Sequence record: NC_054919.1
DNA: 64,000 nucleotides
From: Escherichia phage vB_EcoM_G4507
Strand: one strand, 5' to 3'
Position numbers and translations under genes: made by a program. This document shows positions 37,111 through 40,880 of the stretch, one piece after another. The stretch's first letter is position 1. Each line of letters opens with the position of its first letter. Below the pieces are notes generated by a model. It was given only the letters and a program-made list of their open reading frames with translations. It did not search any database and was not told where the DNA came from.

Positions 37111-37422
37111 TTACACCGCCATTTTTCCTTTCAAGACGCCGTGGGGCTGATAATCTTTGAGAACGAAATCTTTAGGCCTGAGTTTAAGAATGTATTCCAA
37201 TTGTTCTTTAGTAGAAAGATAGCGGAATTTATAAGGCAATCCGCCTATTACCAGTTCACAAAGCTCTTTAGGTTCACGACGCAAAATTTCTTTACATTGT
37301 TCTACGTGATTCATATAGATATGAGTATTACCACCGGAAAATATCAAATCTCCCGGAATAAGATTACACATCTTAGCTACAATATGAACTAACGTAGCAT
37401 ATGATGCAATATTAAATGGAAG
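37111..37422 (-). CDS. td: Thymidylate synthase, exon 2 (103 codons)
   Basis: Begins LPFNIASYATLVHIVAKMC, the conserved ThyA segment following DVFLG; 183 + 103 = 286 aa as in T4 TS. Confidence 0.9.
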   Translation of the reverse strand, partial: LPFNIASYATLVHIVAKMCNLIPGDLIFSGGNTHIYMNHVEQCKEILRREPKELCELVIGGLPYKFRYLSTKEQLEYILKLRPKDFVLKDYQPHGVLKGKMAV

Positions 37423-38438
37423 CATTATGTTCAGATAAGGTCGTTAATCTTACCCCGGAATTATATCCAGCTGCATGTCACCATGCAGATCAGACTATAT
37501 CTCCAACTTGTTAAAGCAAGTTGTCTATCGTTTCGAGTCACTTGACCCTACTCCCCAAAGGGATAGTCGTTAGGCATTTATGTAGAACCAATTCCATTTA
37601 TCAGATTTTACACGATAAGTAACTAATCCAGACGAAATTTTAAAATGTCTAGTTGCATCTGCTGCACAATCAAAAATAACCCCATCACATGAAATCTTTT
37701 TAATATTACTAGGCTTTTTACCTTTCATCTTTTCTGATATTTTAGATTTAGTTATGTCTGAATGCTTATGATTAAAGAATGAATTATTTTCACCTGAACG
37801 ATTTCTGCATTTACTACAAGTATAAGCAGAAGTTTGTATGCGAACACCGCACTTACAAAACTTATGGGTTTCTGGATTCCAACGCCCGTTTTTACTTCCG
37901 GGTTTACTGTAAAGAGCTTTCCGACCATCAGGTCCAAGTTTAAGCATCTTAGCTTTAACAGTTTCAGAACGTTTCTTAATAATTTCTTCTTTTAATGGAT
38001 GCGTAGAACATGTATCACCAAACGTTGCATCAGCAATATTGTATCCATTAATTTTAGAATTAAGCTCTTTAATCCAAAAATTTTCTCGTTCAATAATCAA
38101 ATCTTTCTCATATGGAATTTCTTCCAAAATAGAACATTCAAACACATTACCATGTTTGTTAAAAGACCTCTGAAGCTTTATAGAAGAATGGCATCCTTTT
38201 TCTAAATCTTTAAAATGCCTCTTCCATCTCTTTTCAAAATCTTTAGCACTTCCTACATATACTTTATTGTTTAAAGTATTTTTAATCTGATAAATTCCGC
38301 TTTTCATAAATACCTCTTTAAATATAGAAGTATTTATTAAAGGGCAGTCCTACAATTTAGCACGGGATTGTCTACTAGAGAGGTTCCCCGTTTAGATAGA
38401 TTACAAGTATAAGTCACCTTATACTCAGGCCTCAATTA
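37423..38438 (-). mobile_element. Group I self-splicing intron in td (1016 nt) with embedded homing endonuclease ORF
   Basis: 5' end TAATTGAGGCCTGAGTATAAGGTGACTTATACTTGTAATCTATCTAAACGGGGAACC matches the remembered T4 td intron; ends ...CATAATG before exon 2. Confidence 0.9.
37570..38307 (-). CDS. I-TevI: I-TevI intron-encoded GIY-YIG homing endonuclease
   Basis: 245 aa; MKSGIYQIKNTLNNKVYVGSAKDFEKRWKRH GIY-YIG domain and C-terminal zinc finger/HTH region. Confidence 0.95.
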   Translation of the reverse strand: MKSGIYQIKNTLNNKVYVGSAKDFEKRWKRHFKDLEKGCHSSIKLQRSFNKHGNVFECSILEEIPYEKDLIIERENFWIKELNSKINGYNIADATFGDTCSTHPLKEEIIKKRSETVKAKMLKLGPDGRKALYSKPGSKNGRWNPETHKFCKCGVRIQTSAYTCSKCRNRSGENNSFFNHKHSDITKSKISEKMKGKKPSNIKKISCDGVIFDCAADATRHFKISSGLVTYRVKSDKWNWFYINA

Positions 38439-38987
38439 ACCCAAGAAAACATCTACTGATCGTTGATACCACTGCAAATCCAAATAGCCATTACGCACAT
38501 TAAACTGATAGAACATATGACAAGGCGGTAATGCCATTTGCTTAAGTTCTGCCGGATTCCATGCTGAAACAATTTGACGCCTATCATTTGGCAGTTTTTT
38601 AATACGATCAATAACTTCTATAATTTGGTCTACACCGCCAAAATCACGCCATTGTTTTCCATAAATTGGACCAAGTTCACCGCTATGGTATCCTAAATCT
38701 TTTGCTTGATTTTCGTAATTTTCATCCCAGACTGTTTTGCCTTGAATTAATGAATTATGTTGAATTAATCGCAAATCATTTACGTTAGTACTTCCTGATA
38801 AGAACCACAATAACTCAGAAATACATGCATTCCAGGCGAGCTTCTTAGTTGTTACTGCAGGAAAACCTTTAGTTAAATCCCAGCGTAATTTAGTACCGAA
38901 CAAAGCAATTGTTCCTGTGCCCGTTCGGTCATCAGTTTCATAACCATTTTCAAAAATGTCTTTAATTAAATCTTGGTATTGTTTCAT
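38439..38987 (-). CDS. td: Thymidylate synthase, exon 1 (183 codons)
   Basis: MKQYQDLIKDIFENGYETDDRTGTGT... ends ...QWYQRSVDVFLG at the 5' splice site. Confidence 0.9.
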
Positions 38988-39032
38988 TTAGTACCTTATA
39001 TAAATTATAATACATTTTATGAAGCTAAATAA

Positions 39033-39380
39033 TCAATACGGTTTAGCATCAAATTTTCTCTCAATTTCAGGCGTGAAATATAATTCTTTACCGCGTTTGG
39101 AAAAGCGACCAATAATATGATAATTATTCTCATCAAACGTGATATTACCAATATCCATAGCTTTCAACCAAATATCGATATTTCTATCCAGCTTTATGTC
39201 AAAATTCCAATACGGAGAACTATTACCGAAAATACTGCAAGCGGATTCAGTGAAACAACTGCTATAAATCTTGTCTTTAGGAACTACTAATTGATAGACA
39301 CCTTTAATAAACTGAGGACCCTGCCATTTAGGTTGTTTCTCATCTTTTTCTAATAGAATAGGGTAATAATTAAAATTCAT
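39033..39380 (-). CDS. Hypothetical 115-aa protein of unknown function, inserted between frd and td
   Basis: Intact ORF MNFNYYPILLEKDEKQPKWQGPQF...; no motif I recognise; occupies a position where, from memory, T4 frd and td overlap directly. Confidence 0.55.
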   Translation of the reverse strand: MNFNYYPILLEKDEKQPKWQGPQFIKGVYQLVVPKDKIYSSCFTESACSIFGNSSPYWNFDIKLDRNIDIWLKAMDIGNITFDENNYHIIGRFSKRGKELYFTPEIERKFDAKPY

Positions 39381-39399
39381 ATTTCCGCCACGCGTTATT

Positions 39400-40226
<827 letters not shown>

Positions 40227-40237
40227 ATTATCTCCTA

Positions 40238-40570
40238 TTAAAAAGGATCAGGAATATATCCGCTAGCTTTAATCATTTTAATTAACGTTAGCATTCCTTT
40301 ATTAACCGCTCGTGAGATTTCATCAAAAACTTCATCACTAAAAAGTTCTAACACACCCTTCTGAACTTTTAATTTACAGCCAACAATTTCGTCATCGCCT
40401 ATAGTAAATTCATTACCACCAATTCCTCCGAAAAACTTAATTACACCAGTTAACTGTCTTCCACGAGAATATGGGTCGTGTGATAAATTAATATGAGTCA
40501 CCCCGGGTACAGTTTTAAATTGGCAGCGAATGTTTACTTGGGAAATTCCAGTTACATGAATATCAGACAT
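40238..40570 (-). CDS. Hypothetical protein (frd.2 position)
   Basis: 110-aa ORF. Confidence 0.55.
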   Translation of the reverse strand: MSDIHVTGISQVNIRCQFKTVPGVTHINLSHDPYSRGRQLTGVIKFFGGIGGNEFTIGDDEIVGCKLKVQKGVLELFSDEVFDEISRAVNKGMLTLIKMIKASGYIPDPF

Positions 40571-40580
40571 AATATTTTCC

Positions 40581-40880
40581 TCAAACAGACTTTTTCACAA
40601 TTTTCCAATCAGCTTTAAACTGTTCAACGTCAGAATGGTAAATCCAGAATCCTGCGCTTTCTCCATCCTCATAAAGAGGGCATCCATCACATTCATCTTC
40701 CCATCCCATATCACGCAAAAGACGTTCAGCTTTTTCAACAAGTTCAGAATCTTTACCAATAATATTAAAATACCATTTACCTCTAACTTCTGAATCTTTG
40801 ATACTCTGACGTTGTAATCTCATTTTATTCTCCTTAGTTGATAAGGCTATAGTATCACTACCATAGCCTGTTGTAAACAA
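40581..40880 (-). CDS. Hypothetical protein (frd.3 position)
   Basis: 99-aa ORF. Confidence 0.55.
   Translation of the reverse strand: MFTTGYGSDTIALSTKENKMRLQRQSIKDSEVRGKWYFNIIGKDSELVEKAERLLRDMGWEDECDGCPLYEDGESAGFWIYHSDVEQFKADWKIVKKSV

Follow-up and report, generated by a model that had tools for sequence, protein, structure and literature searches.

A small gene conserved between frd and td in T4-like phages as a candidate host-specific counter-defence or host-range factor

The frd-td interval and its open reading frame

We analysed a 64-kb stretch of the genome of Escherichia phage vB_EcoM_G4507 (NC_054919.1; hereafter the window), in which the minus-strand genes for dihydrofolate reductase (frd) and thymidylate synthase (td) are separated by 412 bp (38988-39399) holding a single intact 115-aa ORF on the same strand (39033-39380, stop codon counted). 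The first-pass annotation of this DNA had put the gap at about 410 bp and quoted the sequence of the ORF, which we matched. According to the ORF listing and the sequence, the TGA of frd lies at 39402-39400 and the ATG of td exon 1 at 38987-38985, and the ORF belongs to PHROG 1928, being the ortholog of RB32ORF229c, EcT6_00235, and bas37_0070. The upstream neighbour, frd, spans 39400-39981 (minus strand) when read from its T4-equivalent start at 39981, which gives a 193-aa product and adjoins the stop of an upstream 81-aa gene; the mechanical ORF (39400-40008) is longer, at 202 aa, owing to an in-frame ATG upstream. Downstream, td exon 1 (38436-38987, minus strand) is followed by the group I intron with I-TevI (37570-38307).

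The ORF is separated from frd by a 19-nt spacer (AATAACGCGTGGCGGAAAT; 39381-39399, minus strand), with a weak Shine-Dalgarno-like GGCGGA at 39389-39384, and from td by a 45-nt spacer (38988-39032, minus strand) carrying the td Shine-Dalgarno AAGG (38997-38994). The 45-nt spacer is near-identical in T2, T6, RB32, and Bas43 (the T6 version is one base shorter), whereas PHB12 and NHEP29 have a 15-nt spacer in its place; in NHEP29 the 19-nt spacer is missing as well, the start of the ORF overlapping the stop of frd as ATGA. Both ends of the interval are marked by copies of a 9-bp direct repeat, TAAATGAAA, all on the minus strand: the left copy (39398-39406) consists of the frd codons AAA TGA plus AA, and the right copy (38982-38990) of TAA plus the td codons ATG AAA. 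The resulting repeat unit measures 416 bp, and T4 keeps a single copy of TAAATGAAA.

The late-promoter-like element TATAAATG that the first-pass annotation placed just upstream is indeed present (39408-39401), but it is made up of the terminal frd codons (TAT AAA TGA). T4 has it unchanged with no ORF behind it, and it is therefore not a feature of the 115-aa gene. A scan for sigma-70 promoters and terminators returned 13 candidates against 8.9 ± 2.8 in shuffled background, with nothing specific to the ORF. Within the conserved spacer between the ORF and td, TTTAGCTTCA-N12-TAATTT (39029-39002, minus strand) comes within one mismatch of a MotA-dependent middle promoter; the transcription start that it implies would land on the td ribosome-binding site, which makes promoter function doubtful. 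Early expression together with frd and td is suggested by what is known of the transcription unit in T4 and by the early promoters predicted in the fPS-2 record.

Family, predicted product, and the T4 junction

The 115-aa ORF is a genuine gene under strong purifying selection. A chance reading frame is excluded because pairwise dN/dS among seven phage copies (T2, T6, RB32, Bas43, PHB12, NHEP29, and the window) is 0.04-0.07 at dS of 0.6-0.9, and because the product matches the HMM of PHROG 1928 ("unknown function") at E=3.1e-36, residues 4-111 aligning to profile positions 2-125 of 126. By tblastn we found the protein in 562 phage records, each at least 80% covered, with identity of at least 90% in 361 and below 60% in 201. 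The frame is intact in all 562.

Contrary to what had first been proposed, the gene is already described: the same ORF stands at the same position in well-annotated T-even genomes, and T6, RB32, and hundreds of further records, many of field isolates, list it as a hypothetical protein. The examined T2 record contains the ORF with no CDS annotation; the RB32 record (2006; RefSeq; RB32ORF229c / YP_803171.1) carries the remark "flanked by 9 bp repeat"; and in the BASEL phages Bas37, Bas41, and Bas43 it is called a "putative homing endonuclease." These labels, together with "putative glucose-1-phosphate adenylyltransferase," are uninformative or unsupported. The window copy is 97-99% identical to its PHROG 1928 relatives RB32ORF229c, EcT6_00235, bas37_0070, Bas41_0068, and Bas43_0069, with one to three residues differing, and these occupy the same frd-td slot, where the 19-nt and 45-nt spacers and the flanking 9-bp repeat recur. 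We found no mention of the ORF in the Petrov 2010 review, it is absent from the accessory-gene screens of Silas et al., and the bNACHT11 trigger paper names other T2 genes; a literature search, including by family and gene identifiers, returned no established function for the PHROG 1928 gene.

Across the loci that we collected from annotated phages and IMG/VR, a family member sits between frd and td in 28 of 28, covering at least five Tevenvirinae genera or groups (Tequatrovirus, Mosigvirus, Kanagawavirus, Moonvirus, and Klebsiella phages). Denoting the 115-aa gene as X, a tandem paralog as Y, and an unrelated 68-aa gene as Z, we find that Tequatrovirus, Mosigvirus, and the Klebsiella phages have the order frd-X-td; Kanagawavirus PEi20 and Moonvirus have frd-X-Y-td; frd-X-Y-Z-td occurs in Enterobacter phage Entb_45 and on two IMG/VR contigs; and about a quarter of Tequatrovirus-type records have frd-Z-td. 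The Y paralogs of PEi20 and Merlin also match the PHROG 1928 profile. Cross-genus identity is 31-47% for X and 44-53% for Frd, a roughly parallel divergence that fits joint vertical descent. An evenly spaced sample of 60 among the 513 records matching the T4 junction comprised about 38 with X, 14 with Z, 5 empty, and 3 with partial matches, placing the gene in about two thirds of sampled T-even relatives.

The 68-aa cassette Z (PHROG 9550; fPS-65 g232c, JS98) shares with X the slot and the coupled ATGA/TAATG junctions, and in roughly a quarter of T-even records it is the allele found in place of X, although its sequence is unrelated; since Kanagawavirus carries X, Y, and Z in tandem, these are separate genes of one array and not versions of one. 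Z has no Pfam match, lies at 498-704 of our locus L005 (fPS-65) and at 3173-3379 of L013 (Entb_45), and replaces X in about 135 T-even-type records; its start codon is the ATG that serves as the td start in T4. In Entb_45, frd is annotated as two pseudogene fragments (L013:2002-2516), pointing to a frameshift or an error of sequencing; X, Y, Z, and td downstream are intact.

Beyond these loci the family is narrow. A search of 1.84 billion representatives yielded 19 clusters at 50% identity, restricted to phages and about 100-116 aa in length (the exception in length, the 838-aa P0029, is a TPR-repeat protein and was set aside as a spurious match), and a word-indexed protein search gave 3 matches, or 14 when seeded with distant phage homologs. 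No paralog was found elsewhere in the window. One 195-aa protein from a 100-kb contig of NCBI source (P0014) matches the C-terminal half of the phage nucleotidyltransferase PHROG 388 over its first ~160 residues and ends in ~35 residues that are the C terminus of a Klebsiella-type X, a fusion that suggests a rearrangement or insertion within the frd-td slot of some Klebsiella phage.

This distribution bears on the state of T4, whose record (NC_000866) has the overlap of the frd stop and td start (ATGA) that the first-pass annotation described. From that overlap the 115-aa gene had been taken for an insertion; the 28 loci across at least five genera, and its presence in T2, T6, and RB32, speak for the opposite polarity. 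Alignment of T4 with the window reveals a 416-bp indel bounded by exact TAAATGAAA repeats (39406-39398 and 38990-38982), and T4, FL18, and the divergent phage ECO07P3 have identical empty junctions with a single TAAATGAAA copy. By parsimony, T4 probably represents the derived, deleted state, with loss between the two junction repeats, because its empty junction equals one copy of the flanking repeat and because every family locus places the gene between frd and td. Overlapping stop and start codons (ATGA or TAATG) occur at each junction of the array, and the 9-bp repeat is that coupling motif seen twice. Recombination between two such motifs would excise a gene and restore a working coupled junction, which is the simplest account of the state of T4.

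A similar reduction, in keeping with this account, is seen on the other side of frd. Between frd.1 (DUF5417, 40581-40880 in the window) and frd, the window carries two minus-strand genes with no T4 counterpart, the 81-aa PHROG 3183 gene (39981-40226) and a 110-aa DUF7247/PHROG 3566 gene (40238-40570); in T4 this space is a gap of just 72 bp, T2 holds the 81-aa gene alone, and the DUF7247 gene also lies 3' of frd.1 in Mexia, PEi20, Entb_45, and Merlin. The absence of these small genes makes T4 the most reduced genome across this neighbourhood.

The encoded protein is 13.7 kDa, with a pI of 7.7 and 17% aromatic residues. As the first-pass annotation had noted, it contains no assignable motif: GIY-YIG, HNH, and LAGLIDADG signatures are absent, and there is no Pfam match at E up to 10, no match in NCBIfam (E up to 1) or PADLOC, and no similarity to known anti-defence families (Acb, Tad, Ocr, Arn, Dmd, and others). 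A profile search of PDB sequences hit TagH over a fragment at E=0.005, which we judged to be chance. An AlphaFold2 model built on a 14-sequence alignment (pLDDT 88, pTM 0.81) assigns residues 6-12, 27-34, and 80-82 to strands, 38-40, 48-50, and 62-64 to short strands, 68-77 to a helix, and 86-96/99-104 to a hairpin, and we read it as a predicted small beta-barrel with weak OB-fold resemblance; its weak structural neighbours include S1 domains and the LysRS anticodon-binding OB domain, in matches that are not significant. The closest known comparisons include the OB-fold nucleic-acid-binding domains of S1, SSB/RPA, HIN, Teb1/Cdc13, and the RecO N terminus, again with weak resemblance. Aligned across X and Y, the residues M1, Q16, W19, G21, G27, G91, F93, K95, G97, and F102 are invariant, and no D, E, H, C, or S is. 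The lack of an invariant acidic residue, His, Cys, or Ser argues against an enzyme, especially a nuclease, and for a binding protein. With no match to a solved structure or known family, the family is apparently new in fold.

A host-specific phenotype in Bas37

A phenotype for the gene can be read from the HIDEN-SEQ preprint (10.1101/2025.11.20.689424), which built mariner insertion libraries at saturation in T4 and Bas37 (phage KarlGJung, MZ501089). In Bas37 the ortholog, bas37_0070, is flanked by td exon 1 and frd across spacers of 45 and 19 nt, as in the window, and its protein is identical to the window protein at 114 of 115 residues (99%). Insertions hit 34 of its 36 TA sites on K-12, where it is classed as "Non-essential" (10.1101/2025.11.20.689424, Extended Data Table 7), and its mean insertion count there is 372, compared with 117 for frd and 29-31 for td. 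We covered five of the six comparisons, those of four uropathogenic strains and of CFE336 with K-12, identifying the sheets of the four by sheet order and that of CFE336 by its header. None of the four gave a significant change in bas37_0070 (log2FC of +0.40 on CFT073, +0.18 on CFE299, -0.09 on CFE303, and +0.16 on CFE331). A mean count of 372.4 on K-12 becomes 14.1 on uropathogenic CFE336 (log2FC -4.62, p and adjusted p shown as 0.00000; 10.1101/2025.11.20.689424), a depletion of about 25-fold.

The neighbouring genes are not depleted on CFE336 (log2FC of +0.37 for frd, +1.5 for td, +1.2 for I-TevI, and +0.46 for bas37_0072), and a polar effect therefore cannot explain the bas37_0070 result. 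The full set of significant depletions on this host consists of ba-glucosyltransferase (-7.70), PseT (-7.58), bas37_0070 (-4.62), Srd (-3.44), Cef (-3.37), bas37_0225 (-1.52), and rIIB (-0.99), while bas37_0260, Dmd, and td are significantly enriched (10.1101/2025.11.20.689424). bas37_0070 thus ranks third in depletion overall and first among genes of unknown function. The main text of the preprint never names it; its authors report that extra factors turned essential on strains beyond T4 infection, the T4 tables hold no CFE336 experiment, and Lamassu-Cap4 is the sole CFE336 defence that they cloned, with no pairing reported (10.1101/2025.11.20.689424).

Insertions in Bas37 td and I-TevI, which correspond to 37111-38987 (minus strand) in the window, are also enriched on CFT073, CFE299, CFE331, and CFE336 relative to K-12 BW25113. 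For td the log2FC is about +1.5 to +2.6 on those strains, with only some values surviving multiple-testing correction, and how costly it is to lose the phage thymidylate synthase therefore seems to vary with the host.

A probable host-specific counter-defence or host-range factor

An ortholog 99% identical to the window protein is dispensable on a defence-poor host (K-12) and needed on a specific wild host (CFE336). Dispensability on ordinary hosts and a strong requirement on particular E. coli strains make a host-specific role in counter-defence or host range, exerted by binding, the most likely reading, to which we assign a probability of roughly 0.6. Of the original description as an undescribed accessory or anti-defence gene, "accessory" holds, the guess at anti-defence gains support from the depletion of bas37_0070 on CFE336, and "undescribed" has to be given up. 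The closest parallels are T4 NrdC.1 (anti-Septu) and Bas37_0203 (anti-Druantia III), small T-even proteins that, like bas37_0070, lack a known domain, can be lost on K-12, and show strong depletion on a single clinical isolate in the same data set. They have no sequence relationship to the 115-aa protein, and their phenotypes have been confirmed by clean deletions and matched to cloned defences, whereas the phenotype of the 115-aa gene comes from Tn-seq.

We infer that the CFE336 phenotype is counter-defence and that the protein works by binding. On this account, an ancient accessory gene of the T4-like frd-td module (PHROG 1928), probably lost from T4 by deletion, encodes a 13.7-kDa, aromatic-rich, non-catalytic beta-barrel of predicted OB-like topology, presumably synthesized before replication along with dihydrofolate reductase and thymidylate synthase. 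Binding would run through the conserved Q16/W19 and G91-x-F93-x-K95-x-G97/F102 motifs, and the ligand may be a strain-specific host immune protein or a nucleic-acid or nucleotide trigger of that protein. Three points count against this account: the phenotype comes from one Tn-seq comparison in a preprint supplementary table, for an ortholog rather than for this phage; conditional essentiality could reflect host physiology instead of immunity; and anti-defence genes, which turn over fast, less typically combine deep vertical synteny with strong purifying selection.

The composition of the CFE336 depletion list raises the alternative, which we consider unlikely, that the protein is an OB-type RNA-binding helper protecting or repairing RNA or tRNA after a host ribonuclease-type defence, in the pathway of PseT (polynucleotide kinase), RnlA, and Cef. 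The RNA-centred genes PseT, Cef, and Srd are co-depleted with it, the structural neighbours named above are S1 and anticodon-binding domains, and the invariant W19, F93, K95, and F102 are of the aromatic and basic type by which OB folds bind nucleic acid. Those structural matches are, however, not significant, and ba-glucosyltransferase is depleted on CFE336 as well, indicating that several independent defences operate there, so that co-depletion need not mean a shared pathway. The gene is, moreover, not required on CFE299, where Cef is highlighted. T4, which lacks the 115-aa gene, is classically reported to need only Pnk and Rnl1 against the PrrC anticodon nuclease.

The invariant position between frd and td, in all 28 loci, and the frequent overlap of stop and start codons, which implies translational coupling, could instead be taken to mean that the protein is an accessory subunit or regulator of phage thymidylate, folate, or dNTP synthesis, co-translated with dihydrofolate reductase and thymidylate synthase. 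We regard this as improbable: conserved order and ATGA overlaps are common in T4-like genomes and do not necessarily imply a functional link, the pathway runs in T4 without the gene, and Pfam detects no nucleotide- or folate-binding domain. The transposon data point the same way, K-12 tolerating insertions in X but showing lowered counts in frd and td, and CFE336 requiring the gene while td insertions are enriched.

We give very little credence to the reading, annotated in Bas37, Bas41, and Bas43 and close to the idea of the first-pass annotation, that a free-standing homing endonuclease or mobile cassette entered between frd and td and duplicated 9 bp of its target. X does resemble the Seg and Mob homing endonucleases of T4 in being a small gene at a junction of conserved genes, variably present in close relatives and flanked by a short repeat, and its neighbourhood is rich in such genes, including I-TevI in td. 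It differs from them in having no GIY-YIG or HNH motif or other nuclease domain, none of the potentially catalytic residues D, E, H, and C is invariant in the family, and its predicted beta-barrel is unlike the GIY-YIG, HNH, LAGLIDADG, and PD-(D/E)XK folds. Its distribution is vertical and not sporadic, with strict cross-genus synteny, divergence parallel to that of frd, and strong purifying selection (dN/dS about 0.05), and the "repeat" is the stop/start coupling motif that recurs at every junction of the array. Equally improbable is a dispensable remnant with no current function, as the gene's non-essentiality on K-12 and four clinical strains, its loss in T4, and the presence of a different gene in its place in about a quarter of relatives might suggest, given the low dN/dS, the intact frame in all 562 records, and the depletion on CFE336.

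Taking the counter-defence reading further, it is possible, as a tentative extension that we hold with less than even confidence, that the gene founds a structurally new counter-defence family directed against a CFE336 immune function, possibly one acting on RNA, that its loss contributes to the narrower host range of T4 relative to T2-, T6-, and RB-type relatives, and that the frd-td slot with X, Y, and Z is a conserved anti-defence locus that sheds genes through the repeated ATGA motif. Since T4 is the reference genome of the group, genes absent from it are easily overlooked or taken for insertions. The coupled ATGA junctions of T4-like arrays allow single genes to drop out with their essential neighbours unharmed. 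Published transposon data hold a strong, unremarked host-specific phenotype for one such gene, which points to a candidate new counter-defence protein and to a host immune function that it opposes.
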